Source: Patescibacteria group bacterium (lineage in GTDB: Bacteria > Patescibacteriota > Patescibacteriia > XYB2-FULL-38-15). From it: 64,000 nucleotides of DNA. Shown one piece after another: positions 16,829 to 60,648 of this stretch (positions are counted from its first letter, which is position 1; the number at the start of each line of letters is the position of its first letter). The notes beneath the pieces were generated by a model. That model saw only the letters and a list, made by a program, of their open reading frames with translations, was not told where the DNA came from and did no database searches. Location: positions 227,166 through 291,165 of the forward strand of contig JBAZJZ010000001.1 in NCBI GenBank assembly GCA_041650995.1, read 5' to 3'. The translations under genes and the position numbers were made by a program.

Positions 16829-16840
16829 ACTCAAAAAATT

Positions 16841-16880
16841 AAAAAGAGAGACCCTGGTACGACCGGGGTCTCTTTGTTTC
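16841..16880. terminator. bidirectional terminator AGAGACCC..GGGTCTCT flanked by A- and T-runs
   Basis: Lies between convergent genes. Confidence 0.55.
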
Positions 16881-16899
16881 TGTCCTCCTTGTTGGGTAA

Positions 16900-17475: not shown

Positions 17476-17572
17476 CGTACACCTCCTTTACGATGGAAGG
17501 TGCGAGGCGAAATTGGCGTTGGCTAAAAGCAGAATCGCCCAGCCATACAAGCCACGCTTCGCAGCTGTTTAC

Positions 17573-17599
17573 TTTATATTATATTACGGGATTTGTCAA
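17573..17599 (-). promoter_or_regulatory. promoter TTGACA-15-TATAAA on the minus strand for cassette C
   Basis: Read from the reverse complement of GGGATTTGTCAAGGG. Confidence 0.35.
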
Positions 17600-17676
17600 G
17601 GGTAAATGAGGTTTGCTGGTTTATTCTTAATTTGCTATACTTTTACTAGAATTTAACGAGGCAGATTTAAGGCTTT

Positions 17677-34598: not shown

Positions 34599-35228
34599 TT
34601 ATTTCAAGGGAAAAGATTTAAGAACAGAGTAAACCGACCCGTCAGAAGTAAGTTCACTTTCCATAAGTTCAACACTTTTTACAGGAAAAGTCATGGACGG
34701 AATTTTTACGCTGGCGATTTTACATCTGGACCAGTCCTTAATTCTGCCCAGAGTTAGATGTCCCTGCCACGGACGCGTATCAACTTTATGGCCAAGATTT
34801 TCGAGCATTACTTCAAGTTTACCAATCAAATCATGGAGAGTTTCCGTATCTTCTACCGCAGTAAAAAACACCCGTGGTTCTCGTTCATTCGGAAAACAAC
34901 CAGAAGTTCCAATATTTAATTTAAAAGATTCAATACGTTTAGTTATTTCTTCAATCCCCTCTTCCACCAGAGCAATTTGCTTTTCGCTTAGATCACCGAA
35001 GAAATGCAATGTTAGATGAAGATTTTCTGGTTCAACCCACTTTATCCCGTAATCAGGATTTAATTTTTTCAATTCTTCAATAATAGGGTCGAATTTTTTC
35101 TTTATGTCGTCTGGCAGATTTATGGCGATAAAAGTGCGTTTAGTCATAAATTTTCCGAAATTATTAGTGTTAAAATTATAGCATTTTTTTGTTTTTAAGG
35201 CAAACTTTATGCGTTGACTAAAATTCAA
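34599..35228 (-). CDS. thpR: RNA 2',3'-cyclic phosphodiesterase (2H family, ThpR/LigT). The real start is probably the internal MTKRTFIAI, about 35147.
   Basis: Two HxT motifs, HLTLHFFG and HLTLGR. Confidence 0.75.
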   Translation of the reverse strand: MNFSQRIKFALKTKKCYNFNTNNFGKFMTKRTFIAINLPDDIKKKFDPIIEELKKLNPDYGIKWVEPENLHLTLHFFGDLSEKQIALVEEGIEEITKRIESFKLNIGTSGCFPNEREPRVFFTAVEDTETLHDLIGKLEVMLENLGHKVDTRPWQGHLTLGRIKDWSRCKIASVKIPSMTFPVKSVELMESELTSDGSVYSVLKSFPLK

Positions 35229-35242
35229 TTTTTTGGTAAATT
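35214..35242 (+). promoter_or_regulatory. promoter TTGACT-17-TAAATT of the island D operon
   Basis: Same architecture as the cassette A1 promoter. Confidence 0.45.
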
Positions 35243-35292
35243 TTAGGCAGTGAGGCGGAAGCCGGGGTCTCCGGGTAGTTGGGATTTTCTCC

Positions 35293-35715
35293 GTGGCTCG
35301 GAGGAGAGAGGAGAGTAAAATAATGGCAGCGGGAAATTCTCGAGTAAGGTATGGTTCAGGTCATTCGACAAGAGAAATGCCCGTTCTTCCGGATTGCCGA
35401 CGGGGCCATGTCTGTATTTCTTCGTCTCGTGGAGCGGGCCATTGTGGCCACTGTGATACGGATTTCATCTGTCCTTCATGCAAACATAATGGCATGAAGA
35501 CCAAGGATTGCGAACCGCCTGCCTTCATCCTGCAGTGTCCCCGATGTCAACACGAAGAACGGATTCACTGGGTTGAGTTTGACATCCAGTGTCCCCGATG
35601 CGGATGTAAAAACGCTTCCGGGACATATTCGAGGTTGCTGGAACCGATCATTCAATGCCCGGACTGCGGACCGAGTAGGGGGGGTGTCGGTCGTGCAGAA
35701 AAGGAGGGGAAATGA
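35293..35715 (+). CDS. multi-zinc-ribbon protein with five CxxC-type pairs, GC-rich (D1). The start is probably the ATG at 35323, behind a GGAGGAGAGAGGAGAG RBS.
   Basis: CGHC..CPSC, CPRC..CPRCGC and CPDCG pairs. Confidence 0.55.
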   Translation: MARRREESKIMAAGNSRVRYGSGHSTREMPVLPDCRRGHVCISSSRGAGHCGHCDTDFICPSCKHNGMKTKDCEPPAFILQCPRCQHEERIHWVEFDIQCPRCGCKNASGTYSRLLEPIIQCPDCGPSRGGVGRAEKEGK

Positions 35716-35933
35716 GCAAACTGCCTGGAAGGCAAGAAGAGGGAAAAATTCCATCCTGGTTTTTGGACGGTCAAGGCCAGATTGGTTGCACGGCAATCGG
35801 AGGCAATCCTCCGTCGACTCTTCTGCACATACCCCCTGTTTTAGAGGGTGTGGATGTGGAACAAGCCTGGTGGCCAAAAAATGGGCTGGGAGGCGATTAT
35901 GAGTTGCTTCCCTGGCTGACGCGCCCAATTTGA
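35712..35933 (+). CDS. hypothetical 73 aa protein (D2)
   Basis: Overlaps the D1 stop in an ATGA. RBS AAGGAGGGG. Confidence 0.45.
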   Translation: MSKLPGRQEEGKIPSWFLDGQGQIGCTAIGGNPPSTLLHIPPVLEGVDVEQAWWPKNGLGGDYELLPWLTRPI

Positions 35934-35954
35934 ACAAAAGAAGGGGAAGACAAG

Positions 35955-36221
35955 GTGGCAAGAAAATCTGGACGTCGTAAGAACATCTTCAGTGGTCTTG
36001 GAATCTCTCCTGAACAAGAAGCTGCGCTCAGAAGAAGGGCGCCGCCGCTTTCGGAGAGACGGTGGCTCGAGATACAACTGCTCATTGCGCGGGATGCGTT
36101 GGCCGACAGTTTTCCCCTGGAACCGATTTTTGTCGTTCCGCCAATCGTGGGACGCGAAGAGCGCAAGCCGCGAAGATCGATTCTGATCGACAACTTCTCC
36201 GGAGTAGAAAGGCTTCGCTAG
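35955..36221 (+). CDS. hypothetical 88 aa protein (D3), GTG start
   Basis: RBS GAAGGGGAAG. Arg-rich. Confidence 0.4.
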   Translation: MARKSGRRKNIFSGLGISPEQEAALRRRAPPLSERRWLEIQLLIARDALADSFPLEPIFVVPPIVGREERKPRRSILIDNFSGVERLR

Positions 36222-36234
36222 GGAGAAGAACTAC

Positions 36235-36462
36235 GTGAGTGAAGACGCTAATTTAAAAGAGCGCGAAGAAGCTTTGCGCCAACGACTTGTTACCTGGGCA
36301 GCACTTACTCCGGAGGAACGTCTGGATGCGAGGGTAAAAAGACTTCGTTTGTGGAAGCGACTCGAGGAAGAAGCCACCGGTGTCTGCAGTCGCGAAGCTG
36401 GTCTGCCCGGTGACTGGGATATTCCTTGCCGACCCGACGTGGAGTTTAAGGAGGTGGATTAG
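36235..36462 (+). CDS. hypothetical 75 aa charged helical protein (D4), GTG start
   Basis: RBS GGGAGAAG. Sequence EERLDARVKRLRLWKRLEEEA. Confidence 0.4.
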   Translation: MSEDANLKEREEALRQRLVTWAALTPEERLDARVKRLRLWKRLEEEATGVCSREAGLPGDWDIPCRPDVEFKEVD

Positions 36463-36493
36463 CCGACGCGAAAGAGGAAGCGTCGGTTTTTTT
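36463..36493 (+). terminator. intrinsic terminator CCGACGCG..CGCGTCGG followed by TTTTTTT
   Basis: Same stem family as 4041 and 5019. Confidence 0.55.
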
Positions 36494-36521
36494 ATTATCT
36501 GATTTTTGCTATAATTAAAGT

Positions 36522-37547
36522 ATGAAAGAGGCTTTATTTTACAAAAAATTATCCAAAAATCGCGTCCAGTGCCAGGCGTGTAGTCATTACTGTAAAATCG
36601 CGCCAGGCAATCGCGGGATTTGTGGCGTTCGGGAAAATCAGGACGGCAAACTTTATTCTTTGGTTTACGGAAAAATTGTCGCCAAAAATGTTGATCCAAT
36701 TGAGAAAAAACCACTTTTTCATTTTTTACCGGGAACAAAAAGTTTATCGATTGCTACGGTCGGCTGCAATTTCAGATGTCTCTATTGTCAGAACGCAGAC
36801 ATTGCCCAGATGCCGAAAGAAAGCGTTTTATTCCGAGAAGGCAACGTCCCAGGAATTGATCTGACGCCAAAAAATATTGTGAACGAGGCATTATTGATCG
36901 GCGCGCCGAGTATAGCTTATACTTATACCGAACCGACGATTTTTATTGAGTTTGCTCTGGAAACAATGAAGCTGGCGCGCCAGAAAAATTTAAAAAATAT
37001 CTGGGTGACAAACGGTTACGCGAGCAAAGAAGTTTTAAAAGAAGTAATCCCCTATCTTGACGCGGCCAATATTGATATAAAAGGTTTTACTGAAGAATTT
37101 TATAATAAAATTTGCGGCGCGAAGTTGCAGCCGGTTTTGGAAGCCGCAAAAATGATGAAGCGCGGCGGTGTTTGGGTAGAAATTACAACGCTTGTTGTGC
37201 CCGAGCAAAATGATACGAAAGAACATTTTGAAAGTATCGCTAAATTTATTGCTAAAAATTTGGGAAAAGAAACTCCGTGGCATATCTCTAAATTTTTTCC
37301 AACTTACAAATTAAAAAACTTGCCACCCACTCCCCAATCATCTTTGATTGAAGCCAGAGAGTTTGGAAAAAAATTCGGTTTGCGCTATATTTATTTAGGT
37401 AATGTGCCGCTCGCGGAAGGCGAAACAACTATTTGCCCAAAGTGCGGCGTTAAAATGATTGAACGTTCTGGTTATGAAATTGTCCGCTACGACAAAGACG
37501 GTAAATGCGCGAATTGTGGTGAAAATTTAAATTTAATTTTAAAATAA
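36522..37547 (+). CDS. amrS: AmmeMemoRadiSam-system radical SAM enzyme
   Basis: An N-terminal CxxCxxxC cluster, the radical SAM motif CNFRCLYC, and a C-terminal CPKCG..CANCG ribbon. Confidence 0.7.
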   Translation: MKEALFYKKLSKNRVQCQACSHYCKIAPGNRGICGVRENQDGKLYSLVYGKIVAKNVDPIEKKPLFHFLPGTKSLSIATVGCNFRCLYCQNADIAQMPKESVLFREGNVPGIDLTPKNIVNEALLIGAPSIAYTYTEPTIFIEFALETMKLARQKNLKNIWVTNGYASKEVLKEVIPYLDAANIDIKGFTEEFYNKICGAKLQPVLEAAKMMKRGGVWVEITTLVVPEQNDTKEHFESIAKFIAKNLGKETPWHISKFFPTYKLKNLPPTPQSSLIEAREFGKKFGLRYIYLGNVPLAEGETTICPKCGVKMIERSGYEIVRYDKDGKCANCGENLNLILK

Positions 37548-37564: not shown

Positions 37565-37831
37565 ATGGCCGAACAAATAAGCGGAATTGAACGGGTGCAA
37601 GAATTGCGTTCAAGATTAGAAATTTTTTGGAGGAACGTTTTAGGGGAATATTTTGAACAACACCATGAGTATCCCCCGTTTGTGGATCGGGGAAAAGTTG
37701 GTGAATTTATTCAATTGGTTAGTAATAGGGATTCTCAATTTAGACAAAGCGTGGAGCAATTTAGGCCGATTCAAAGTGAAGTAGAAAAAGTAGCCATGGA
37801 AGTATATCGCGATCTCATAAAAGCAAAGTAG
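37565..37831 (+). CDS. hypothetical protein, 88 aa
   Basis: ORF in native composition. Confidence 0.4.
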   Translation: MAEQISGIERVQELRSRLEIFWRNVLGEYFEQHHEYPPFVDRGKVGEFIQLVSNRDSQFRQSVEQFRPIQSEVEKVAMEVYRDLIKAK

Positions 37832-37979: not shown

Positions 37980-40613
37980 ATGCCAATGCTCCCGCAAAAT
38001 TTTACCACTAAATCTCAGGAAGCCCTGCAGGCGGCCCAGGGTTTGGTTTTTGAATATAACCATCAATATTTGGATCCTCTTCACGTTTTTTCAGCTCTTT
38101 TGGACCAGGAGGGCGGGATTGTTGGTTCGCTTCTTCAAAAACTGGGGATTAATATAGTTGATTTAAAACAAAGAATTTTAACAGAGTTTCAAAAATTACC
38201 AAAGCACGCCGGTCGGAGGCAAGGAGGTATGGCGCAAATGAATGTTGGGCAGGAAATGGTTCAAGTTTTTTATGCCGTGGAAAAAGAAGCCAAAAAAATG
38301 AAAGATGAATATATTAGCACTGAACATATGCTTTTGGGATTAGTAAGCGTGAAAAGCCGGGCTAGTGAAATTTTATCTGCGGCGGGCGTAACCTACGACG
38401 GAGCGCTTAAGGTTCTCGCTGAAGTTCGCGGTACGCAGAAAGTTGATTCACCGGAACCGGAAGCAAAATACCAAGTTTTGGAAAAATATACGATTAATCT
38501 TACAGAATTAGCTCGTCAGAAAAAACTTGATCCGGTCATAGGCCGCGATGAAGAAATCCGTCGCGTGATGCAAGTGCTTTCGCGCCGGACAAAAAATAAT
38601 CCGGTTTTAATCGGCGAGGCTGGTACGGGAAAAACCGCGATTGTCGAAGGTTTAGCGCAGCGAATCGTGGCCGGCGATGTGCCAGAAAGTTTAAAAGATA
38701 AAGAGTTGGTTTCCTTGGATTTGGGTTCACTTTTGGCTGGGACAAAATTTCGCGGTGAATTTGAAGACCGATTGAAGGCTGTAATTAAAGAAGTAAAACA
38801 AGCCAGCGGAAAAATAATTTTATTTATTGACGAATTGCATACAATCGTTGGGGCGGGCGCGCTTGAGGGAGCGATGGACGCTTCTAATATGTTAAAACCG
38901 GCTCTGGCTCGCGGTGAATTGCATACGATTGGCGCGACAACCATCAAGGAATATCATAAGTACGTGGAAAAAGACGCGGCCCTGGAACGGCGTTTCCAGC
39001 CAGTCTTTGTCGGCGAACCGTCGGTAGAAGATACGATTGCTATCTTGCGTGGCATCAAAGAAAAATATGAGGTTCATCACGGCGTAAAAATTACCGATGC
39101 GGCGATTATCGCGGCGGCAACTCTTTCGCATCGCTATATTTCAGACCGTTTTCTACCCGACAAAGCAGTGGACTTAATTGATGAAGCAACATCCGCACTC
39201 AGAATGGAAATTGATTCTATGCCGACCGAGCTGGATCAGCTGAAAAGAAAAATGATGAAATTGGAAATTGAGCGGCAAGCTTTGATGAAAGAAAAAAATG
39301 AAGACGTAAAAGATGAACTTAAAAAATTAACTAAAGAATTAGCCGAAACGCAGGAAAAATCAAAAGAATTAGAGATCGGCTGGCGTTATGAAAAAGATTT
39401 GATTAGCCAAATTAGAAAAGCGCAAAAACAAATTGATTATTTAAAACAACAAGCTGATATTGCCGAGCGAAAAAGCGAATTAGAAAAAGTCGCCGAGATT
39501 CGTTATGGCAAAATTCCGGAATTAGAAAAAGAAATCAAGACTTTGGAAAAAAAATTAAAAAAAGCGCCAGCAGACAAAAGAATTTTGCGCGAAGAGGTTA
39601 CTGACGAAGATATCGCGAAAGTTGTTTCCCGTTGGACCGGCGTTCCGGTTTCAAAAATGCTTCAAGGTGAGGTGGAAAAATTGGCACACGCCGAGGACGA
39701 ATTGAGCAAAAGAGTTATCGGTCAGAAAGACGCGATAAAAACTATTGCTAATGCGTTGCGTCGTTCACGGGCCGGAATTTCTGAAGAGAAAAAACCGATT
39801 GGCTCATTCATTTTTGTCGGCCCGACCGGCGTTGGTAAAACTGAACTTTCAAAAGCTTTGGCGGAATTTATGTTTAATGATGAAAACGCGCTTGTCAGGG
39901 TTGATATGTCAGAATATATGGAAAAACATTCCGTGGCGCGGCTCGTTGGCTCCCCTCCCGGTTACGTCGGCTATGATGAAGGCGGACAATTAACCGAAGC
40001 TATTCGCCGCCGGCCGTATTCTGTCGTTCTTTTTGATGAAATTGAAAAAGCCCATCCCGAAGTCTTTAATATTTTGCTTCAGATTTTAGACGATGGGCGT
40101 TTGACTGACGGTCGCGGCCGCACCGTGAATTTTAAAAATACGATTATTATCATGACCTCAAATCTTGGTAATCAGGTTATTCGAGATTTTTCTATTGGTT
40201 TTCAAGATGGAGAAAATCGTGAAATAAGCCGCGACAGCGAAATGCGCAGTAAGATTATGGACATTCTTCGAGAGACGTTTAAGTTGGAATTTTTAAACCG
40301 TATTGATGAGATTGTGATCTTCAAGAGTTTGGGAAAAACGGAAATCGGAAAAATTATTGAATTGCAGTTAGTCGAAGTTCAAAAACGGCTTAATGCTAAA
40401 AAAATAAAATTGGATATTGCCGATACAGTTAAAAAGATGCTCGCGGAAAAAGGCTTTGATCCGATTTTTGGAGCCCGTCCATTGAAACGTGTTATTCAAA
40501 ATCAGATTTTAGACGAGCTGGCGCTGCAGATTATTGAGGGAAAAATAAAAGACGGAGATAAGGTGGAGATTGACCTAGGTAAAGAGAAAAAAATTACATT
40601 TGCAATAAAATAA
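37980..40613 (+). CDS. clpB: ClpB disaggregase chaperone (AAA+)
   Basis: Two Walker A motifs, GEAGTGKT and GPTGVGKT, with a long M-domain coiled coil. Confidence 0.9.
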
Positions 40614-40628
40614 AAGTATTTAAAAATT

Positions 40629-40654
40629 ACGGCCGAAAAAGCCGTGGTTTTTTT
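40629..40654 (+). terminator. clpB terminator ACGGC..GCCGT followed by TTTTTTT
   Basis: Stem with a T-tract. Confidence 0.5.
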
Positions 40655-40656
40655 AT

Positions 40657-40704
40657 AAAAAAAGACCCGACTCGGAAGATATTTCAGTCTCTTCACGAGT
40701 CGGG
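40657..40704 (-). terminator. minus-strand terminator CCCGACTCG..CGAGTCGGG for the island E operon
   Basis: An A-run precedes the stem on the + strand, which gives a T-tract on the - strand. Confidence 0.5.
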
Positions 40705-40722
40705 GTGACTCCAGTCTGGGAG

Positions 40723-40914
40723 TCAGCAGGGTCTAAACGCGATGGGTTCGCGCCGCCAGCCGAAACCGTCCGTCATCTTCTCGCTTCTCCCCCCTTCGCG
40801 AAGCGCGCCGTCCTGTGGTGCACCACAAAAGGCAATCGCAACCGGCGGTGGGGACGAAAAGAGCCGTGCCAGGTTTCGCGTGACGAAGTGCGCGAACAGT
40901 CCAGCACTTAGCAT
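40723..40914 (-). CDS. hypothetical 63 aa protein (E3), GC-rich
   Basis: RBS GGAGGAGG sits 6 nt upstream of the ATG. Confidence 0.35.
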   Translation of the reverse strand: MLSAGLFAHFVTRNLARLFSSPPPVAIAFCGAPQDGALREGGRSEKMTDGFGWRREPIAFRPC

Positions 40915-41016
40915 GCCGGACCTCCTCCGTTCCCTCGGATTTGGGTCAGTGTTAGGTTCCCGCCATTCTTCTTTCTTCGCCCGGGTTTCAGCGCGACGGC
41001 TGACGCTGTCCCGGGC

Positions 41017-41217
41017 TTATGCAGCGAGCGAGCACTCTCCCAAGATCACCTTGGTGAAGACCGCGTCGGACGTGCCTCGGGTTCCAGCTGTTGGCTGGTT
41101 CCCGTGCGCACCAAAAGTGCCAAGGAAGATGTCGGGCAAGGGTTCGAGCCAGAGATCCGGAACGAGCGTCACAGCGACCGCGACGCCAATCATCGGACCG
41201 AGGAAATCCACCATCAC
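41017..41217 (-). CDS. hypothetical 66 aa protein (E2), coupled to E1 by an ATGA overlap
   Basis: An internal ATG of the 126-aa track ORF overlaps the E1 stop. Confidence 0.35.
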   Translation of the reverse strand: MMVDFLGPMIGVAVAVTLVPDLWLEPLPDIFLGTFGAHGNQPTAGTRGTSDAVFTKVILGECSLAA

Positions 41218-41450
41218 CGCTCTCCTTTCGCGAATCGCCTTCTCTCCCCTACGTTCCTTATCTTGCCCCAAACCCACATGATTCCGGAGAGGAATGAGAA
41301 AAAGCACAGGAAGTATGGCCACAGCAAGATCACGATAATGATGAGGGAGACGTCTGACAGATTGGACTTCAATTCCTTCCGGAGTTGCTTCCAACATACC
41401 ACGACTACTAGGGCCGCGACGATCCCGACGATCCAGATTGTGGTTGCCAC
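41214..41450 (-). CDS. hypothetical 78 aa small membrane protein (E1), GTG start
   Basis: Two hydrophobic helices. RBS GAGAGGGAAG. Confidence 0.45.
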   Translation of the reverse strand: MATTIWIVGIVAALVVVVCWKQLRKELKSNLSDVSLIIIVILLWPYFLCFFSFLSGIMWVWGKIRNVGERRRFAKGER

Positions 41451-41513
41451 GTTACTTCCCTCTCTATTTCTACGCGGGCAAAATGCCTCGCGTTAAGGTT
41501 TTAACCTTTTGAT

Positions 41514-41542
41514 TAGATTAAGACAGGATTAATTTTCTGTCA
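41514..41542 (-). promoter_or_regulatory. promoter TTGACA-17-TAATCT on the minus strand for the E operon. Coordinates are approximate.
   Basis: Reverse complement of CTGTCAAGAG...AGATTA. Confidence 0.35.
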
Positions 41543-41599
41543 AGAGATAATTTATAAATAAAAAGAGCCGACCCAAGGTTTGACAACCTATGGATCGGC

Positions 41600-41860
41600 G
41601 GATGACGAGAGTTGGCGTCCTCGAAGTAGTACCGTCAGGTTGACGGTCGCTGAGTAGCGTCAAGGTGTTTGACTACACCGAGGACAGAAGCCTGGTGGCG
41701 CCGGTGGGGTCCGGTCAGGTCGACGTGGACGTCGGGGAAGCGAACATGTGATTTCCGCTGTCGCGCGAACGCGCGAACGGACCGTACCTGATTCCCATCT
41801 GATCCTCCTTCTTCCGTAGGGGGGTTGCCTTTCACCGTGGAAGACTTCCCCACCCCATGA
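41600..41860 (-). other. GC-rich structured transcription unit with three tandem palindromes, a 27-codon ORF (MGIRYGPFARSRDSGNHMFASPTSTST) behind a GAAGGAGGA RBS, and its own imperfect terminator at about 41560-41600
   Basis: The palindromes are CCGTCAggTTGACGG, GACGCT..AGCGTC and GGTGTttgactACACC. Confidence 0.3.
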
Positions 41861-41866
41861 TGTCAA

Positions 41867-41895
41867 TATATTAACACAAGATTGTGTTGTTGTCA
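41867..41895 (-). promoter_or_regulatory. promoter TTGACA-17-TAATAT on the minus strand driving the structured unit
   Basis: It sits back to back with the + strand extended -10 (TGgTAAAAT) of the next gene. Confidence 0.35.
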
Positions 41896-41997
41896 AGAGG
41901 AAAATGTGGTAAAATAGAATCAGCAGTCATTTTGAATTATGGTTTTTGTTTTTAACTTAGCCATAATTCCCGATTCATAATTCATGACTAAAAACCC

Positions 41998-43392
41998 ATG
42001 AAAAATATTAAATTTAGAAAATTCATAAGTTTTGTTGCCCTTATTTCTATCTTTCTGCCCAATCTTGCTTTTGCCGAATTTAATCCAAACTATATTATTT
42101 CCGATCAGGAATTAACTGATCAAAATTCAATGTCTTTGACACAGGTTCAAAAGTTTCTGGAAGATAAGGGCAGTTCTCTCGCCCATTACGCGACAATTGA
42201 TACTGACGGCCTTGGCCGGACTGCCTCGGAAATTATCTGGCGAGTGGCCCAAAGTTATAAAATCAGCCCAAAGGTTTTGCTTGTTACCTTACAAAAAGAA
42301 CAAAGTTTAGTTACGACCGCTGTTCCAACACAAAAACAACTTGATTGGGCAACGGGCTACGGTATTTGTGATTCTTGTTCCATGTCCGACCCTACTCTTC
42401 AAAAATACAAAGGTTTTGCCACTCAAGTTGATTACGCAGCCGGCTGGAAAAGATGGTTTTTAGATAATGCCTTGACCCTCTCCTGGGTAAAACTTCCCGG
42501 CGTAACTTATTTAATTGATACTTACAAAATTACTCCGAGTAATTTGGCCACGGCGGCTTTTTACACTTATACTCCGCACTATCATGGAAATTATAATTTT
42601 TGGAAACTTTGGCAGGATTGGTTTGGAAAATTTTTCCCTGATGGAACAGTTTTAAAAGAAGCTGATGGAACTGGTATTTGGTTGCTTCAACGCGGACTAA
42701 AACGCCAATTTTCCAGTTACTCCGCTTTTATTTCCCGTTATTCTCCGGATAAACTAATTACCGTGTCAAAAAGCGAATTGGAAAATTATGAAACAGGCAC
42801 GCCAATAAAGTTCCCTGATTATTCTCTTCTCCGCTCACCCGCCGGCACGGTTTATCTTTTAGTCGGCGATACGCGACGCGGCTTTTCTTCAAACGAAGTT
42901 TTCCGGACAATCGGATTTAATCCTGATGAGGTCATGGACGCGACATGGGAAGATTTAAACGCCTACATTGAAAACGATCCAATCACTATGCAAAGCGTTT
43001 ACCCGACAGGCGCGCTTTTGCAGGATAAAACTTCGGGCGGAGTTTACTATGTGGAAAACGGAATAAAAAAGCCTCTTTGGGCAAAACAATTTTTAACTTT
43101 ATATTTTGCGAATAAAAAAATCACGGTTGTCTCTCCTGATGAATTAAAGAAATATCCGACGGGCGAACCGGTAAGATTCAAGGATGGCGAACTGGTTCTT
43201 GGAGAAAGTGCCCCAACAGTTTATTTTATTTCAAATGGTGAACGACGGCCGATTCCCACAGAACAAGTTTTTAACGGTCTTGGATTTAAATGGACGAATA
43301 TTATAAAAACCACGGATAAAATTTTATCCCTGCATCCGCTCGGTTCGACAATTTACCTTGGCGGCGCAGTAGAGACAACGGTCAACAATTAA
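41998..43392 (+). CDS. secreted protein with four internal repeats of about 45 aa in the C-terminal half
   Basis: Signal peptide FISFVALISIFLPNLAFA. The repeats follow the pattern G.VY...NG.RRPI....F..LGF. Confidence 0.55.
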   Translation: MKNIKFRKFISFVALISIFLPNLAFAEFNPNYIISDQELTDQNSMSLTQVQKFLEDKGSSLAHYATIDTDGLGRTASEIIWRVAQSYKISPKVLLVTLQKEQSLVTTAVPTQKQLDWATGYGICDSCSMSDPTLQKYKGFATQVDYAAGWKRWFLDNALTLSWVKLPGVTYLIDTYKITPSNLATAAFYTYTPHYHGNYNFWKLWQDWFGKFFPDGTVLKEADGTGIWLLQRGLKRQFSSYSAFISRYSPDKLITVSKSELENYETGTPIKFPDYSLLRSPAGTVYLLVGDTRRGFSSNEVFRTIGFNPDEVMDATWEDLNAYIENDPITMQSVYPTGALLQDKTSGGVYYVENGIKKPLWAKQFLTLYFANKKITVVSPDELKKYPTGEPVRFKDGELVLGESAPTVYFISNGERRPIPTEQVFNGLGFKWTNIIKTTDKILSLHPLGSTIYLGGAVETTVNN

Positions 43393-43411: not shown

Positions 43412-44203
43412 ATGCTGACTTTCGCGGCAATTACTCCTCATCCTCCAATTTTAATTCCTACAATCGGCCGAGAAAATACAAAAATAATTAAAAAAACCGC
43501 CGAAGCAATGGAAGAGTTGGAGAAAAAACTTTTCGAAGCCAAGCCTGATATCATAATTGTTATTTCTCCCCACGGCGTGCTTTTGCCGGACGCTTTTTCA
43601 ATTAATTTAAATCCTGAATACGTGAGTAATTTGGAAGAATTTGGTGATTTTTCTACTAAAATCAAATTTAAAACAAACACAGCTTTGGCTTTTCGTATCA
43701 AGGAATTGATGGAAGATAAAAATATTCCCCTAACTTTAACGAGCAACGTATTTTTGGATCATGGTGTAGTTGTTCCTCTTTATTTTTTGACAAAAAGGCT
43801 TTCGAAAGTTTCTATTTTACCTATCAGCTACTCATTGCTTGATTTTAAAACAAATTTTAATTTTGGAGATATTCTAAAGGAAATAATTTTAAATGAAGAT
43901 AAAAAAATCGCGGTCATCGCATCAGGAGATCTTTCTCATTGTCTTACTAAAGACGCGCCAGCAGGATATTCGCCGCGAGGTAAAGAATTTGATGATAAAT
44001 TGATTGAGCTTATCACTAATAAAAATACTGCGGGAATTTTAAAATTAGATACCGATCTAGTAGAAAAAGCCGGTGAGTGCGGTCTGCGCTCCATTTTAAT
44101 TCTTCTTGGATTGCTTGAAAGAATAAATTACACGCCAGAAATTTTATCATACGAGGGTCCATTTGGGGTTGGCTATCTCGTCGCCAATTTTAAACTTGAA
44201 TAA
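43412..44203 (+). CDS. amrB: AmmeMemoRadiSam system protein B-like (Memo/LigB superfamily)
   Basis: ITPHPPIL, ISPHG and SGDLSH motifs. It is adjacent to an AMMECR1 gene. Confidence 0.5.
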   Translation: MLTFAAITPHPPILIPTIGRENTKIIKKTAEAMEELEKKLFEAKPDIIIVISPHGVLLPDAFSINLNPEYVSNLEEFGDFSTKIKFKTNTALAFRIKELMEDKNIPLTLTSNVFLDHGVVVPLYFLTKRLSKVSILPISYSLLDFKTNFNFGDILKEIILNEDKKIAVIASGDLSHCLTKDAPAGYSPRGKEFDDKLIELITNKNTAGILKLDTDLVEKAGECGLRSILILLGLLERINYTPEILSYEGPFGVGYLVANFKLE

Positions 44204-48350: not shown

Positions 48351-48477
48351 AAGTTACTTGAAGTCTCGGTCATTTTAACTTATGACCTTTTGATATTATC
48401 TCAAGGATCTATCGTTAAAATTGTCCTACTCTTCTGCTCGCTCCCGTCTAAACGAGAGCTTATTTAATTATGTTTAC

Positions 48478-48505
48478 ATTATACACTATTCTATGAATTT
48501 GTCAA
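48478..48505 (-). promoter_or_regulatory. promoter TTGACA-16-TATAAT on the minus strand
   Basis: A perfect consensus. Confidence 0.45.
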
Positions 48506-48508
48506 GAT

Positions 48509-48542
48509 AAAAAGAAGTGGCGTCAACTTGCGTTAACGCCAC
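48509..48542 (-). terminator. minus-strand terminator GTGGCGTcAAC..GTTaACGCCAC for cassette F
   Basis: One mismatch in the stem. T-run on the minus strand. Confidence 0.45.
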
Positions 48543-48580
48543 TAAGAGAAATGATTTTGTAGTTCGGGTGAGGATTTGGG

Positions 48581-48973
48581 CTAGCCCCTCCATGAAACGT
48601 CGGTCAGGGGCACGCTGACCTCTACCTGGCGTTGCGGCCAGCCGTTCTCCGGACCGATCCTCCTGGCCGTCTCGCCCATCGTCTGGACGAATCGGCGAAG
48701 CGCGGAGTCGCTCCGACCCTCCCTCGTTTCGAAGGGAGGCGCGAGGTGCTCCAGAAGATCGGGCGAGAAGCCAATCGTGATCTGGAGCGGATCCTTGATG
48801 CCGTGTTCCTGGCTCGCAGGGATCGAGCTGTCGGGCATCACCGTGATGTCTTCCGGTTTCAATTTCAACCCGAAGTTGAAACGGCGGCATGCTTCGCGGA
48901 GCATCCGCTCGAGCCGTCCACAGCTGAACTCGTGGCTTCCTCCTCCTTTGACCAAAAATTTCACTTTGCCCAT
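48581..48973 (-). CDS. hypothetical 130 aa protein, GC-rich (cassette F)
   Basis: RBS GGGAAGGAGAAAG. The alternative 178-aa and 137-aa frames are R-rich or low complexity. Confidence 0.5.
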   Translation of the reverse strand: MGKVKFLVKGGGSHEFSCGRLERMLREACRRFNFGLKLKPEDITVMPDSSIPASQEHGIKDPLQITIGFSPDLLEHLAPPFETREGRSDSALRRFVQTMGETARRIGPENGWPQRQVEVSVPLTDVSWRG

Positions 48974-49032
48974 CTCTTGTCTTTCTCCTTCCCTTTCCCC
49001 CTACTGCCGCCCTATGCAGCAAACTCGATTAT

Positions 49033-49060
49033 ATTTTATACTTAATTGATATTTTGTCAA
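49033..49060 (-). promoter_or_regulatory. promoter TTGACA-16-TAAAAT on the minus strand for cassette F
   Basis: Consensus hexamers. Confidence 0.45.
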
Positions 49061-49111: not shown

Positions 49112-50815
49112 TTATTTTTTTAACTTTTGAATAAATATATCACAAAAAATTATATATCCAATTCCCAAAGGATGGTTCAAATATGGACTAAAAAAATTTG
49201 TGGCTAAAAGGGCGGCTAATCCGGCCAAAAACCCGAATGCTATAAATACCCCAGAACGCCCCAAACCCCAGCCAGAACGCCAAATTTTAGCGATAAAAAG
49301 AAGATAAACAACTAGTCCGGCCAAGCCAATTTTAAGCATTATATCCAAATATCCCCATTCAAAAGCGTAGGTTGTAAAAATCCCCCCTGGATTAACCTGA
49401 ACCGCGCGAGGATCACTGCTTTTGTAAGTGACTGTTGTCCCAAACCCTGAACCAATAATTGGATGTTTTATAATTGCTTGTCCAAGCGGTGGCAAAAGAT
49501 CCCAACGGCTCCGGACCGCGGCTTCGTCTAAATCGGTCAGGCGGTCGCTAAACATTGAAGCAAAAGAAATTCTTCCCGGCTCGGGAAATGGAAATTGCGC
49601 GGTCGCGAAAGTCGCGGACAAAGAAATTACTAAAATGGCGAGGCCGGCTAAACCAATTTTTACAATTTTTCCCAAAGAAAATTTTTGAATAATTAAAATT
49701 ATCAAAAGTGCGAGAAGTCCGACCGCGAGCCCAACCCAAAAACTTCGAGAAAAACTGATCAAAACCGAAGTCAATGATCCAATCGCCAATAACCAATATC
49801 TCTTGTCCTTTTTGTTTTGCCAAATTAAGAAAGCGGAAAAAATAAAAAACCCAATCAGTAAATAAATCTGCGACTGGAAAAATATTCGGTAAAAACCGCT
49901 TGGCATTAATGTAACTTCTCCGATTAAAAATTGCCGGAGCCAACGATAGATCGGAAGAACTGCGACTTCAAAACCATGAGAAAAAATGTAAAGGAAGAAA
50001 AAAGTTTTGATAATAATAACCGTAACGGCGGCGGTGAAAATTTGTAAAACATTTTCAATTTGTTCGCGCGATTTTATAACATCAACGAGCGGGAAAATAA
50101 TGCCAAAATAAAGCCAGCCATTAAAATCAAAAAATAAATTTTGGAAAGAGTTGCCGCGAATTAATCCCCAAATAAATCCCCAGATAATAAATGCAAACAA
50201 TATCCAATACCATTTATTTAGCGAAAATTTAAAATCCCGTTTTTCAATTCTTCTATATACCCAAACTGCCATCACAATTAAAAATAAGGCAATGCGCAGA
50301 GAGACCGAAGTTCCGCCTAAATCAAAATAAAATAAATATCCTTTTGAACCAATAAACAATTCTGCTAATAGGATATAAATTCCATATTCCAATTTTTCCA
50401 AAGTTAAAACTAAAGTCAGGCCAAGAATAACAAAAAATGATACTTTATTAAAGAGCGGGAAAAAATACGCGACAAAAGACAAAATTAACGCGAAAGAAAC
50501 GAAGAGCAGCGAGGTTTTAAAATATTTTCCGAATAAGTTCATATCTTGACAATTTATATTTTTATTGATAGATTGTAGTGTAGCCTGAACAATCTCGTTT
50601 AGGCCAGAAGGAGGGTATAAGGGATGAATTCCCGACTCGAAAGACTCAAGGTGACGATCGCGAAGTGCGAGAAGATCGAGGAGATTTTCGCCAAGCATCG
50701 CGTTCGCGGAACGGAGCCCACCCACTACGACGACGTGATCGCCGGCTTCGACACTCCGGCGCGAAGCGGCTTTCTCTTGAGGTGGGATCTCGTGGTTAAG
50801 GGTTCGGCCGGCCAC
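49112..50815 (-). CDS. O-antigen ligase/polymerase-like (Wzy_C-type) polytopic membrane protein. The true start is probably ATG at about 50542 (MNLFGKYF).
   Basis: About 12 TM segments. The N-terminal 95 aa of the track ORF are GC-rich and antisense to cassette H. Confidence 0.6.
   Translation of the reverse strand: MAGRTLNHEIPPQEKAASRRSVEAGDHVVVVGGLRSANAMLGENLLDLLALRDRHLESFESGIHPLYPPSGLNEIVQATLQSINKNINCQDMNLFGKYFKTSLLFVSFALILSFVAYFFPLFNKVSFFVILGLTLVLTLEKLEYGIYILLAELFIGSKGYLFYFDLGGTSVSLRIALFLIVMAVWVYRRIEKRDFKFSLNKWYWILFAFIIWGFIWGLIRGNSFQNLFFDFNGWLYFGIIFPLVDVIKSREQIENVLQIFTAAVTVIIIKTFFFLYIFSHGFEVAVLPIYRWLRQFLIGEVTLMPSGFYRIFFQSQIYLLIGFFIFSAFLIWQNKKDKRYWLLAIGSLTSVLISFSRSFWVGLAVGLLALLIILIIQKFSLGKIVKIGLAGLAILVISLSATFATAQFPFPEPGRISFASMFSDRLTDLDEAAVRSRWDLLPPLGQAIIKHPIIGSGFGTTVTYKSSDPRAVQVNPGGIFTTYAFEWGYLDIMLKIGLAGLVVYLLFIAKIWRSGWGLGRSGVFIAFGFLAGLAALLATNFFSPYLNHPLGIGYIIFCDIFIQKLKK
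50546..50574 (+). promoter_or_regulatory. promoter TTGACA-17-TAGATT for cassette H. It abuts the ligase start codon on the other strand.
   Basis: Seen in sequence. Confidence 0.45.
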
Positions 50816-51094
50816 AGAGAAAACCTCCTGGGGCGAGAACCGACCTGCATCGAGATTTCTCTCTCGGGCGGGGAACGGGGTGACCGGCTGATCATCCTCT
50901 CCTACCTCCCGGAGACCCGCGGCTGGACGATCGAAGGATCGACCGATATCGGTCTGGACGGGATTCCAGCCATTCGCAACCTGGCCGCCGACTGCAGGCT
51001 TTCGGCCGGCGAGGAGCGCCAGATCGGTGAGGACGAAGCGATGAAGATCATCGCCACGCTCGCCGTTTTCTATAAGAGCCAGCCCGTGGGCTAG
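50624..51094 (+). CDS. hypothetical 156 aa protein, GC-rich (cassette H)
   Basis: RBS GAAGGAGGG. Confidence 0.55.
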   Translation: MNSRLERLKVTIAKCEKIEEIFAKHRVRGTEPTHYDDVIAGFDTPARSGFLLRWDLVVKGSAGHRENLLGREPTCIEISLSGGERGDRLIILSYLPETRGWTIEGSTDIGLDGIPAIRNLAADCRLSAGEERQIGEDEAMKIIATLAVFYKSQPVG

Positions 51095-51121
51095 ACCTCG
51101 ACGGACGGAGGAACGAACTAC

Positions 51122-51165
51122 CGCCGACTAAAAAGCGAAAGCTAATTAGTCGGCGTTTTTTTATT
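51122..51165 (+). terminator. terminator CGCCGACTAA..TTAGTCGGCG followed by TTTTTTT
   Basis: 10-bp stem. Confidence 0.55.
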
Positions 51166-52009
51166 TTTTAAAACTTTGTGCAGACCAAGCAAGGATCAAG
51201 CTTAACGGTCGGAGAATCTGAATTGCAAGCCACTCCCCTTTTGTGCCGTGCTTTTTAAAATAATAAGATAAACTTCGGTTAAAATCTTTTTGTTTTTTAA
51301 TACCCATGGCTTGTTTAAAACTTTGCCCAAAATGATGAATAATTTTCGCCTCTGGAGTATATAAAATTTTAAAATCCGCCTCTTTCGCGCGTTTACAAAA
51401 ATCAACTTCCTCAAACCAAATCCAAAAATTTTCATCAAGCATCCCGATTTTATTTATCACTTCTCGGCGAATCAGCATAAACGCGCCCATTACCTGATCA
51501 GCTTCTTGTATTTTTTCATAATCAAAATCCTGAACTAAATATTTATACATCGTTTTGGAGTGTGGCAGGAGATGGTGAATTTTTAATAAAATGAAAATTT
51601 GCGAGGCCAAGTCTGGAAAAGCGCGAACTGACGGTTGAAGCGACAAATCTGGATTTAATAATTTACAGCCGCCGATGCCGCACTCGGGATGAGTGTCCAT
51701 AAATTGAACCATCTTGCCTAATGCGTTATCCAGAATTTCCGTATCCGGATTTAAAAGTAAAATATACCGACCACGAGATTTTTTTATTGCTAAATTATTT
51801 CCTTTGGCAAAACCCAAATTTTCCGCGCTCGCTGTTAAATCAACTTGGGGAAATTTTTCTCTTACCATTTCTACACTTCCATCGCCTGAATTGTTATCCA
51901 CGACAAAAACTTCAAAAGTAATATCTTTTGTTTGTTCAAAAATTGATTTCAAACATTTTTCTAGCAAATCCTTGACTTTCCAATTTACGATAATGATTGA
52001 CAAGTCCAT
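51161..52009 (-). CDS. GT2-family glycosyltransferase
   Basis: LSIIIVNWK..VVDNNSGDGS. Confidence 0.75.
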   Translation of the reverse strand: MDLSIIIVNWKVKDLLEKCLKSIFEQTKDITFEVFVVDNNSGDGSVEMVREKFPQVDLTASAENLGFAKGNNLAIKKSRGRYILLLNPDTEILDNALGKMVQFMDTHPECGIGGCKLLNPDLSLQPSVRAFPDLASQIFILLKIHHLLPHSKTMYKYLVQDFDYEKIQEADQVMGAFMLIRREVINKIGMLDENFWIWFEEVDFCKRAKEADFKILYTPEAKIIHHFGQSFKQAMGIKKQKDFNRSLSYYFKKHGTKGEWLAIQILRPLSLILAWSAQSFKK

Positions 52010-52712: not shown

Positions 52713-52742
52713 ATTTTTATAATTATAAAGGTTTTTGCTTTA

Positions 52743-52789
52743 AAAAACAAGATAAAAAGATCCACCAGGGCACAGCCAGTAGTGGATCA
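52743..52789 (-). terminator. minus-strand terminator GATCCAC..GTGGATC with a T-run
   Basis: Downstream of the GC-rich paralog. Confidence 0.5.
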
Positions 52790-52818
52790 GATGGAAAATA
52801 TTCGGTTGTACTGCTCGG

Positions 52819-53280
52819 CTACCTCACGGGTTGGAATTGGATCTTGCCCTCATCCCCGGTTCTGCTCACGATCTCCATGTAGTAGAGTTCGATCTCGAGC
52901 CTGGGGCAACGCCGTTGCAGCGTATCTCGCGCGGCTCGCATATCGTCCTCATGGGCCGCTCTCTCCGCTTCAAGGCTCGGGAACGCCTCCGAACCGCCCC
53001 AGGCCTTGCAGTCGCGATGGGCGATCAAGATGACCCGCGTAGCTTGGTGGTGATGGTCAGAGACCCTACTGAACGCACCCAGGAAAACGTTCCTTGTTTC
53101 TCGATCGGTGTAGACCCTCGGCCCAGAAGGAAAAGTGTAGGGCGTGTAGAATAGAATGCCCAGCTCGTGCCTCAAGAAATCCTGGTGCTGCTGGACAAAC
53201 CGATAGTCCAGACAGAAGACGGCTACTACCGGGACTCTCAGTTTGAGATCAACCAGGTACAACTTACTTGCTTCTCTCAT
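52819..53280 (-). CDS. beta-carbonic-anhydrase-like zinc-site protein, the GC-rich copy (cassette I)
   Basis: CLDYR (CxDxR) and HRDC (HxxC). RBS AAGGAGGAGGG. Homologous to the adjacent native gene. Confidence 0.55.
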   Translation of the reverse strand: MREASKLYLVDLKLRVPVVAVFCLDYRFVQQHQDFLRHELGILFYTPYTFPSGPRVYTDRETRNVFLGAFSRVSDHHHQATRVILIAHRDCKAWGGSEAFPSLEAERAAHEDDMRAARDTLQRRCPRLEIELYYMEIVSRTGDEGKIQFQPVR

Positions 53281-53372
53281 CTTCCCTCCTCCTTAACTCC
53301 TCCCCCTGTTTATTTTTTCAAAAAATTTAAAAAAATAAACCGAGAGACGTTATCTTTCGGCAAAGAATATTT

Positions 53373-53807
53373 TTACTCAACTGGATTAAATTCTATGTTT
53401 TCACCAATAATTTCCGCGTAAAACATACTGACCGAAATTTTTGGGAATTGCTCAAGCAAAATATCTCGGACAGTTTGTAAATCTTTTATTTGCGTTGCTT
53501 CTTCAGTCGCCAGATCCGGAAAAGCTACTGATCCACCGTAAGCGCCGCAATCGCGATGGGCAATTAAAATAATTTTTTCAATATGGTGCAAATTAATTGA
53601 CACATTTTTGAGCGCTTCAAGAAAAACGTTACGCGTTGGTTCGCTGACTAAGGCTTTTGGTCCGCCCGGAAAAACATATTGATCAAATTCTTCAAAGCCA
53701 AGTTCGCGCGAAATAAATTGTTCATGCTGAGTTCGAAATCTTGGATCAAGACAATAGATCGCGGCTACTGGAACATGATGAAAATTTTTAAAAGGATATT
53801 GTTGCAT
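53373..53807 (-). CDS. beta-carbonic-anhydrase-like zinc-site protein, the native AT-rich copy
   Basis: CLDPR and IAHRDCGAYGG. It aligns with 52819..53280 along its full length. Confidence 0.55.
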   Translation of the reverse strand: MQQYPFKNFHHVPVAAIYCLDPRFRTQHEQFISRELGFEEFDQYVFPGGPKALVSEPTRNVFLEALKNVSINLHHIEKIILIAHRDCGAYGGSVAFPDLATEEATQIKDLQTVRDILLEQFPKISVSMFYAEIIGENIEFNPVE

Positions 53808-60619: not shown

Positions 60620-60648
60620 ATTCTAGAACATTTTTAAAAAATGGTCAA
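60620..60648 (-). promoter_or_regulatory. promoter TTGACC-17-TAGAAT on the minus strand for the atp operon
   Basis: Seen in sequence. Confidence 0.4.

Follow-up and report, generated by a model that had tools for sequence, protein, structure and literature searches.

A new multi-zinc-ribbon protein family is the constant component of a variable small-gene locus in one clade of Patescibacteria

Background

Some type II toxin-antitoxin modules, such as MqsRA, include an antitoxin with a zinc ribbon, and these modules resemble the locus analyzed here in the small size and tight coupling of their genes, which include one for a zinc-ribbon protein. This locus, hereinafter island D, is a GC-rich insert (positions 35229-36519; GC content of 52.3% vs the mean of 40.5%) in a 64,000-nucleotide (nt) stretch of DNA, hereinafter the window, from a 543-kb metagenome contig (ENA ERZ27247363) of a Patescibacteria group bacterium. 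The initial annotation described island D as an operon of four small genes (D1 to D4) led by a multi-zinc-ribbon protein, likened it to toxin-antitoxin, abortive-infection or small regulatory modules and considered it the most system-like insert in the window. The outcome of the present analysis is mainly corrective: the island consists of a representative of one new zinc-ribbon family, D1, and its lineage-specific companions. Unlike in the type II toxin-antitoxin modules, no toxin fold was found in island D, D1 has no helix-turn-helix (HTH) domain, its partner is not conserved and, in several lineages, D1 is encoded alone.

D1 also resembles small zinc-finger proteins, an under-studied class of regulators, in particular those with CPxCG motifs. 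Brz of Halobacterium salinarum, a member of the CPxCG class, is a transcriptional regulator (Tarasov et al. 2008, PMC2253796) that shares a transcript with brb, a small basic protein (PMC3184054), loosely resembling the combination of D1 with the Arg-rich D3; small proteins of the CPxCG type have been reported to be much rarer in bacteria, accounting for 1.5% of small proteins (Tarasov et al. 2008, PMC2253796). D1 contains the characteristic arrangement of this class, with two Cys/His pairs 7-40 residues apart and at least one CPxCG, CPxCx or CxxCG motif: C72PRC75Q and C90PRC93G are separated by 14 residues, and C50PSC53K and C112PDC115G are present as well. Similarly to D1, the CPxCG proteins are small and soluble, contain no other domain and often are orphans. 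However, at 130 amino acids (aa), and 116-166 aa among its homologs, D1 falls outside the subclass of small zinc-finger proteins (fewer than 100 residues), strings together three or four ribbons and belongs to a bacterium of the Candidate Phyla Radiation (CPR). The CPxCG proteins are a class defined by motifs rather than by common ancestry, and D1 is not homologous to Brz at the sequence level.

Comparison of D1 with other C4 zinc ribbons, namely domain III of TFIIS/TFS4, Rpb9 and the N-terminal ribbon of NrdR, yielded only scores below the membership threshold; D1, which combines tandem ribbons with conserved His residues, lacks the ATP-cone of NrdR and the acidic hairpin of TFIIS. The sole PDB sequence match to the D1 profile with an E-value below 0.01 is the anti-sigma-G factor Gin/CsfB (PDB 5n7y; E-value 4e-4). 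Both proteins are small, Gin binds zinc and D1 is predicted to do so, and the match covers the most conserved segment of D1, HVC...CGHCD...FICPxCGHxGM, but the zinc ligands do not align: the second Cys of Gin corresponds to a Ser in D1, whereas the invariant CGHC of D1 corresponds to non-Cys residues in Gin. The Pfam family Gin gave no match to D1. Gin is a protein of about 50 aa that is specific to sporulating Firmicutes, and we treat its similarity to D1 at the sequence level as a lead, not as evidence of membership.

Results and discussion

A constant gene in a fixed genomic slot

Island D is probably an operon of small proteins that is limited to one clade of Patescibacteria, where it fills a fixed expression slot delimited by thpR and a radical SAM gene, with D1 as the sole constant gene. 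We detected 4 homologs of D1 in a single-sequence search and 17 in a profile search, with 41-94% sequence identity, and compared 22 D1-bearing loci. The gene order, GltX-WecG-thpR(-)/D1(+).../radical SAM-ClpB, is constant in every locus that is long enough to show it. In the window, in agreement with the placement of the GC-rich insert in the initial annotation, the island is flanked by thpR/LigT (34599-35147, minus strand) on one side and by the AmmeMemoRadiSam radical SAM gene (36522-37547) on the other side.

Unlike the gene neighborhood, the content of the slot varies. D2, D3 and D4 are found next to D1 only in the closest subclade, whose D1 sequences share at least 88% identity with the window copy, and the conserved co-occurrence of the four genes, on which the initial annotation had made the system depend, is largely absent outside this subclade. 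The other lineages carry different sets of small open reading frames (ORFs) next to D1, or D1 alone (Table 1). Thus, D1 is the only constant gene of the locus whereas the other ORFs are interchangeable cargo. Among the latter, the X protein contains the CxxCGHxG(M/I)xT motif of D1, gives a weakly positive hhalign comparison with D1 (E-value 8.6e-6) and is probably a partial D1 paralog. Y is a real gene, with ratios of nonsynonymous to synonymous substitution rates (dN/dS) of 0.13-0.30. The hhalign comparisons of Y with D4, Y with D3, D3 with D4, and the 59-aa ORF of locus L012 with D4 were all negative.

Because the companions of D1 differ from lineage to lineage, the interpretation as a four-gene toxin-antitoxin or abortive-infection system is not supported: D1 is found alone or with unrelated ORFs elsewhere, D4-like genes also occur alone, and no toxin or defense domain was found. 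Specifically, neither toxin (RelE/ParE, MazF, PIN, HipA, Doc) nor antitoxin (HTH, RHH, AbrB, Phd) domains were detected using Pfam, NCBIfam and PADLOC at E-values up to 1, and the PADLOC-DB 2.0 defense models produced only Cas12u2 zinc-finger noise for D1 (E-value 0.23) and nothing for D2-D4.

D1 is the founding member of a new multi-zinc-ribbon family, so far undescribed, that has no Pfam or NCBIfam match and is limited to one clade of Patescibacteria. Searches of Pfam, PHROGs, PADLOC and NCBIfam with D1-D4 and the cargo ORFs produced only sub-threshold matches to generic zinc ribbons and to DUF3106, in line with the initial statement that no member of the island belongs to a known family. 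The D1 family is represented in 3 of the 185,579 species-representative genomes, and searches of 5.8 billion proteins and these genomes revealed no member at any other locus or outside this clade. Two of the three genomes are labelled Patescibacteria; the third one, an 886-kb chromosome labelled 'uncultured Gammaproteobacteria' (L012, OZ246416.1), contains D1 in the same neighborhood. The order GltX-WecG-thpR-D1-radical SAM-ClpB in this chromosome is the one seen in the metagenome-assembled genomes of Patescibacteria, and its ClpB is 94% identical; the Gammaproteobacteria label is probably wrong.

The D1 protein

The D1 sequence contains 14 Cys residues, with five CxxC pairs (at residues 41, 50, 72, 90 and 112), as initially reported. 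In the alignment of 16 D1 sequences, 27 residues are invariant, including 11 Cys and 3 His (H29, H55 and H82). The core of the family spans about 105 aa; most of the homologs are about 155 aa long and carry an extra N-terminal CPNC...CxxC ribbon that is missing in the window copy and its closest relatives. This fourth ribbon of most lineages appears to have been lost from the window D1, and the Cys and His residues can be predicted to form approximately three zinc sites. The AlphaFold2 model of D1 is all-beta, with strands between the Cys knuckles and a mean predicted local distance difference test (pLDDT) score of 61.7; blocks within residues 41-120 have scores of 65-86 whereas residues 1-42 are poorly modeled. 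None of the D1-D4 proteins contains membrane-like segments.

D1 is clearly protein-coding. The numbers of variable sites at the first, second and third codon positions are 11, 6 and 30, respectively, dN/dS is in the range of 0.17 to 0.24 (0.17 and significantly below 1 in the comparison with the related locus L002), and a 6-nt indel is in frame. A longer, 140-aa version of D1 starting from GTG at 35293 was rejected due to an in-frame TAG in the relatives and a weak Shine-Dalgarno (SD) site. The gene caller used for the source contig predicted only D2 and missed D1 but, on the relative L002, called all four ORFs. An exact 14-nt direct repeat, CAGTGTCCCCGATG, located at 35533-35546 and 35587-35600, encodes two QCPRC knuckles of D1 and points to internal duplication or gene conversion between the knuckles of the central ribbon.

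Table 1. Features of island D and gene content of the same slot in other lineages
Feature	Coordinates	Strand	Basis or content
Divergent promoter region, thpR (-) / operon (+)	35148..35243	.	pattern scan; 92-96% identical to L002 vs ~75% background; kept across lineages
thpR promoter-like site, TTGCCT-17-TATAAT	35203 to 35175	-	pattern scan
Operon promoter, TTGACT, 17-nt spacer, TAAATT, TGn extended -10	35214..35242	+	scan, 9/12 matches
5' leader, variable, ends in the D1 SD site GGAGGAGAGAGGAGAG (35300-35315)	35250..35322	+	31% of sites vary
D1, 130 aa, soluble multi-zinc-ribbon protein	35323..35715	+	homologs, codon pattern, AlphaFold2
D2, 73 aa, pI 4.8, ATG overlaps the D1 stop (ATGA), SD site AAAAGGAGGGG, -12.3 kcal/mol	35712..35933	+	coding status unproven
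D3, 88 aa, Arg-rich, pI 11.4, GTG start	35955..36221	+	coding status unproven
D4, 75 aa, acidic, GTG start	36235..36462	+	codon pattern, homologs, AlphaFold2
Intrinsic terminator, stem AGCCGACGC/GCGUCGGUU, 9 bp, 10-nt loop, U-run	hairpin 36461-36488, U-run to 36493	+	-17.1 kcal/mol, z -3.69
Exchanged (recombination or gene-conversion) tract common to the L002/L014/L015 lineage, thpR 5' end to 5' part of D4	35040..36260	.	identity, dS
Slot content, L005/L006			X (113 aa), D1, Y (86 aa)
Slot content, L007/L008			D1, Y (63 aa)
Slot content, L012			59-aa helical ORF, D1, Y (62 aa)
Slot content, L016			73-aa zinc ribbon, D1, 66-aa zinc ribbon
Slot content, L021			114-aa zinc-ribbon ORF, then D1
Slot content, L013/L019			98-aa zinc-ribbon ORF, then D1
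Slot content, L022			X (105 aa), D1, 61-aa zinc ribbon
Slot content, L009/L010/L011/L018 and L017			D1 alone

Conserved expression signals

The description of the island as one transcription unit led by the multi-zinc-ribbon protein is supported. The promoter and terminator that were originally proposed to frame it were found by scanning and folding, respectively, and are kept across lineages. In nearly all lineages, the operon promoter is located at a fixed distance from thpR and consists of a -35 element TTGAC(T/C), a 17-nt spacer and TGnTA(A/G)(A/G)TT; it stays conserved although the synonymous sites are saturated. The terminator was missed in the pattern scan because of its 10-nt loop. Its stem, GCCGACGC/GCGUCGG, and the U-run after it are shared by the window, L002, L010 and L007 irrespective of the cargo, but the loops differ. 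The ribosome-binding sites of the AGGAGG type also are real, being strong for D1 (-9.5 kcal/mol) and D2 (-12.3 kcal/mol) and moderate for D3 (-8.4 kcal/mol) and D4 (-7.9 kcal/mol). Thus, the slot combines a conserved sigma-70-type promoter with an extended -10 element, SD-led ORFs and a conserved terminator.

The region between the promoter and D1 is less uniform. In other lineages, AAAGGAGG and the first ORF usually follow the conserved promoter within about 20 nt; the position of the leader is taken there by a strong SD site and then the first ORF. The leader of the window copy, which differs from the L002 group by a 75-nt indel, is probably a trace of a lost upstream ORF or of the lost N-terminal ribbon. 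In L007 (658-800), the spacer between thpR and D1 is about 80 nt longer, in part because of a hairpin-like, GC-rich insert, GAGGAGCCCCGACGTTTTGTCGGGGCGACG, ahead of the conserved promoter.

The radical SAM gene downstream of the island has its own TATAAT box (36510-36515), 6 nt ahead of the ATG, and is therefore expressed from a separate transcript, which is probably leaderless. TATAAT boxes 6-9 nt before the ATG are found not only in front of this gene (36510-36522) but also upstream of 32336 (minus strand), 46686 and 30047, including genes for an M23 peptidase and a deformylase, and the transcripts of such genes are probably leaderless as well.

Recent exchange between lineages

Within positions ~35040-36260, the nucleotide identity is 0.88-0.95, compared to ~0.70-0.80 outside, and the drop falls inside D4. 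The synonymous distances (dS) between the window and L002 are 0.29 for D1, 0.20 for D2, 0.14 for D3 and 0.70 for D4 whereas those for six flanking genes are in the range of 0.98 to 1.67. In the other lineage pairs, the dS of D1 is saturated (at least 1.4), like that of the flanks; constraint on synonymous sites was therefore rejected as the cause of the low dS, which marks a recent exchange instead. Thus, a recent event of exchange or gene conversion, involving a tract of about 1.2 kb, connects two lineages in which this cassette is present. The locus evolves fast, with the dN of D1 being 2-3 times that of the radical SAM gene. An 88-aa ORF located directly after the radical SAM gene (37565-37831), for which no Pfam match was found, shows 24-76% identity between lineages while ClpB shows 91-94%.

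D4, D2 and D3

Not all of the four ORFs present the same evidence of being genes. All of them exist with the lengths, start codons and overlaps originally given, including the ATGA overlap of D2 with D1 and the Arg-rich composition of D3, but only D1 and D4 show a coding pattern whereas D2 and D3 have no coding signature. In the case of D4, which is clearly protein-coding, the variable sites are distributed among the codon positions as 12, 7 and 21 and dN/dS is 0.18-0.20 (0.18 and significantly below 1 in the comparison with L002); the start codon of D4 in the relatives is ATG. The charged helices initially noted in D4 correspond to a predicted helical hairpin: in the AlphaFold2 model, helices 3-23 and 26-47 (pLDDT 84-95) are followed by a disordered tail, with the turn at the conserved LTPEE motif and a conserved GLPGxWD in the C-terminal tail. 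Only generic fold matches were obtained.

Two distant homologs of D4 (P0008 and P0009) share with it 18 invariant residues in the motif L..W..LTPE.R...RL.L...GL.G.WD. Both are stand-alone genes, with PRPP synthetase as the neighbor in one genome and FolD in the other. D4 may be a small adaptor protein. The closest described family is DUF3106 (PF11304), which has no assigned function and shares with D4 the sequence W..L(T/S)PE(E/Q)R followed by an Arg-rich helix. The matches of P0008 (E-value 4e-4, 21.2 bits) and D4 (E-value 0.023, 15.6 bits) fall below the Pfam gathering cutoff of 24.3 bits, and D4 differs from DUF3106 by the additional conserved GLPGxWD tail. Nothing useful was found in the literature on DUF3106 and AmmeMemoRadiSam.

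The D1-D4 arrangement is represented by four distinct sequences, those of the window, L014, L015 and L002, the latter with the same insert sequence as L004. Among these, the distribution of variable sites over the codon positions is indistinguishable from uniform for both D2 (6, 10 and 13) and D3 (9, 10 and 12) and differs from the D1/D4 pattern (p = 0.013 and p = 0.015, respectively). Between the window and L002, dN/dS is 0.39 for D2 (p = 0.054) and 0.50 for D3 (p = 0.19), in neither case significantly below 1. The D2 ORF is intact in three of the four sequences, and D3 is open in all four. In L014, D2 starts with GTG and is interrupted by a 1-nt deletion that results in a TAG at codon 18; an alternative 82-aa ORF keeps the C-terminal part. 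The SD site of D2 does not vary among the four sequences, and the overlap between the D2 start and the D1 stop is preserved; the SD site of D3 is weaker in the relatives, at about -6 kcal/mol. No homologs were found outside the closest subclade with the concatenated D2 and D3 as the query. The lengths of D2 and D3 are within the reach of chance because, when the D2-D3 stretch was shuffled with its dinucleotides preserved, 43% of the shuffled sequences contained a sense ORF of 73 aa or more, 23% contained one of 88 aa or more, and 5% contained both. Thus, D2 and D3 are subclade-specific ORFs that, with coding status unproven, could be either young or weakly constrained proteins or untranslated spacer.

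Translation of the opposite strand, which the initial annotation had named as an alternative, does not hold up: the 161-aa antisense ORF (35476-35961) is rejected because a stop interrupts it in L015 and a frameshift in L014; those of 98 and 78 aa are rejected because of stops in three of the four sequences.

Base composition and translation signals

The GC content at third codon positions (GC3) of the island ORFs is 0.47-0.54, compared to 0.25-0.42 in the native genes, and D1 is GC3-rich in every lineage (0.48-0.79 vs 0.26-0.52 in the flanking genes). Codon bias linked to expression was rejected as the cause of the high GC3 given that the genes for ATP synthase, GreA, Def and ClpB have GC3 of 0.25-0.42. 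The candidate causes of the lasting GC richness are an origin from a foreign source, followed by partial amelioration; GC-biased gene conversion (PMC4450053) at a recombining locus; and selection.

The same division between native and GC-rich genes is apparent in the translation signals. The 32 native genes of the window have essentially no SD complementarity (-7.3 to +2.9 kcal/mol, most near zero), with a median SD energy of 0.4 for an initial set of 25. Their starts follow A/T-rich runs ('...AAAATT ATG'), and several are located 6-9 nt after a TATAAT box. Canonical AAGGAGG sites, in contrast, precede D1-D4 (-7.9 to -12.3 kcal/mol) and several other genes in GC-rich islands (-11.7 to -13.0 kcal/mol). 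Examples of native starts without SD sites are 36522, 37980, 58128 (minus strand), 55654 (minus strand), 24356/23892 and 46686; examples of starts with near-perfect sites in GC-rich islands are 4129, 17475 (minus strand), 50624, 53280 (minus strand), 7741 and 3326. The same SD contrast was observed around a stand-alone D4-like gene in another genome (L024).

The anti-SD motif has been detected in only 48% of the 16S rRNAs of Parcubacteria (Tsurumaki et al. 2022, PMC9297842). The SD contrast described here bears on translation initiation in CPR bacteria, some of which have been reported to lack this motif (PMC9297842), and also on gene calling in these bacteria, as illustrated by the omission of D1 from the source annotation.

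Functional interpretation and alternative explanations

If island D is a small-protein operon with D1 as its constant gene, D1 would act alone, as a zinc-ribbon binding module, rather than as one half of a toxin-antitoxin pair. Its binding targets would be nucleic acid, RNA polymerase or a sigma factor, or the ribosome, and its role would be the regulation of transcription or translation. We propose such a role because of the analogy with the CPxCG zinc-finger regulators, such as Brz, and with ribbons of the TFIIS, Rpb9 and NrdR types. On this analogy, the assignment of D1 as a stand-alone zinc-ribbon binding or regulatory protein is a possibility that we put forward tentatively; of the readings offered in the initial annotation, the small regulatory module appears plausible for D1.

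Several considerations weigh against this interpretation of the locus. Zinc binding by D1 and the number of the zinc sites are predicted from the sequence. Synteny says little about functional linkage with thpR or radical SAM, or the lack thereof, because everything is syntenic in this one shallow clade. D2 and D3 are open in nearly all copies, and D2 has both its SD site and the ATGA overlap, so that they may be real partners of D1 in the subclade; with four close sequences, the missing codon periodicity in these ORFs is suggestive but not decisive. Finally, fast evolution, variable small companions and exchange between lineages would also fit a conflict locus, involved in defense or counter-defense.

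Under the latter scenario, the four ORFs would form one conflict module (toxin-antitoxin, abortive infection or defense/counter-defense), with D1 as the sensor or regulator and D2-D4 as an effector with its partners, the cargo being swapped under diversifying selection. Apart from the mode of evolution, this is compatible with the tight packing of SD-led ORFs and their ATGA overlap, with the atypical composition of the island and with the combination of one basic (D3, pI 11.4) and two acidic (D2 and D4) products, as in some small toxin-antitoxin pairs. We nevertheless consider such a module quite unlikely: PADLOC, Pfam, PHROGs and NCBIfam yielded no toxin, antitoxin or defense match, D1 in several lineages and D4-like genes elsewhere are encoded alone, D2 and D3 have neither a coding signature nor homologs outside the subclade, most of the alternative cargo consists of additional small zinc ribbons that are not effector-like, and neither viral-contig relatives nor mobile-element ends were found. 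The searches for such ends detected only short AT-rich chance repeats, no terminal repeats and no integrase, and no relatives of the island genes were found in viral contigs. Given these results and the same genomic position in 22 of the 22 loci, a phage or mobile origin was rejected. These observations also bear on the possibility that island D is a horizontally acquired islet, either a mobile remnant or material from a GC-richer, SD-using donor, that has little or no function in the host and in which D2 and D3 are decaying or accidental ORFs. The GC (52% vs 40.5%) and GC3 contrasts with the native genes, the canonical SD sites that native genes lack and the presence in the window of several other GC-rich islands that share both traits and are mostly orphans all agree with this possibility, and the spread of D1 GC3 among lineages (0.48-0.79) is what partial amelioration predicts. 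However, no donor was identified, with the D1 family confined to this locus and clade among the 5.8 billion proteins and 185,579 genomes; D1, D4 and Y evolve under purifying selection (dN/dS of 0.13-0.24); and the promoter, SD site and terminator are conserved despite the saturation of synonymous sites, all of which makes a functionless islet unlikely. Foreign origin as such is compatible with a small-protein operon anchored by D1 too, and the islet is a true rival only with respect to little or no host function.

The remaining alternatives concern parts of the locus. A GC-rich island in an AT-rich genome classically points to structured RNA, and the D2-D3 stretch (~35716-36232) could be non-coding, either forming the structured 3' part of the D1 mRNA or giving rise to a functional RNA of its own; this would account for a GC-rich sequence with even constraint across the codon positions. 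The stretch indeed shows no codon periodicity, its ORF lengths are within chance, and only 12-13% of its sites vary, compared to 23-32% of the third positions in D1 and D4 and 31% of the leader. The low variability has, however, a simpler explanation, namely, that this very stretch was part of the recent recombination tract. The stretch is absent from all other lineages and folds no better than shuffled sequences on either strand (z -1.06 and -0.90); in addition, the invariant, very strong SD site of D2 and the start-stop overlap with D1 argue against a non-coding RNA, which we consider very unlikely. The search of the whole window against Rfam 15 produced no gathering-level match, with only chance-level matches in the island (E-values of at least 0.09), and no tRNA or tmRNA genes were found in a scan. 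A structured RNA spanning the entire island was rejected given the lack of an Rfam match, the folding results (z -1.06, -0.90 and +0.30) and the coding status of D1 and D4. Finally, D1 could be functionally linked to the AmmeMemoRadiSam radical SAM enzyme encoded next to it, whether by being the substrate of this enzyme, by carrying a metal or cluster as an accessory protein, or as the Cys-rich precursor of a peptide, considering that D1 lies immediately upstream, in the same orientation, in every locus that extends far enough, and contains 14 Cys residues. We find such a connection extremely unlikely: the two genes are separated by a strong, conserved terminator and by the TATAAT box that belongs to the radical SAM gene, adjacency is weakly informative where the whole neighborhood is syntenic in a shallow clade, and the regular CPxCG knuckles in a conserved 105-aa core with a predicted ribbon fold are unlike a leader-core precursor of the kind that gives rise to ribosomally synthesized and post-translationally modified peptides. 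Furthermore, the distribution of D1, limited to one clade, contrasts with that of the widespread AmmeMemoRadiSam systems. A gene of the Memo/LigB family (AmmeMemoRadiSam protein B type; 43412-44203) is located about 6 kb downstream of the radical SAM gene, with ClpB and orphan ORFs in between, and the AmmeMemoRadiSam genes are therefore not contiguous here.

A broader, speculative interpretation, which we consider doubtful, is that the slot, with its conserved promoter, SD site and terminator anchored by D1, is a recombination-prone 'nursery' of small proteins and belongs to a genome-wide, GC-rich, SD-dependent, lineage-specific class of genes in a genome whose native genes initiate translation in an SD-independent or leaderless manner. 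Under this interpretation, small genes would be gained, lost and exchanged around D1, including D1-derived fragments, unrelated zinc ribbons, helical hairpins and, perhaps, de novo ORFs such as D2 and D3, and the GC-rich genes would constitute a second, separately translated gene class. The locus itself provides a clean case of a fixed expression slot with a small-gene content that turns over and recombines and could be useful for the study of the birth and loss of small genes in reduced genomes.

Other GC-rich islands of the window

Comparisons with blastn and tblastx revealed no meaningful second copy of island D in the window and no meaningful kinship among the GC-rich islands. Seven more such islands, with GC content of 0.51-0.56, are located at 4075-5056, 16807-17604, 40608-41927, 48472-49042, 50555-51216, 52733-53316 and 60641-61801. 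Their main ORFs have GC3 up to 0.78 and show no Pfam match save for one; the islands are unrelated to each other and to island D. The 179-aa ORF that follows ClpB (40742-41281) is GC-rich at both the second (0.64) and third (0.65) codon positions and, in the comparison with L007, has a weak coding signature, with 51, 58 and 68 differences at the three positions and dN/dS of 0.59. No long ORF is present in the ~700 nt of GC-rich sequence after it (41281-41998). This region could represent either a dubious gene or some other type of element. Two adjacent paralogs of Pro_CA_2 (putative carbonic anhydrase) are encoded on the minus strand at 52819-53280 and 53373-53807, one with GC3 of 0.69 and a strong SD site, the other with GC3 of 0.28 and no SD site, which suggests that the pair consists of one native copy and one that was acquired or converted.

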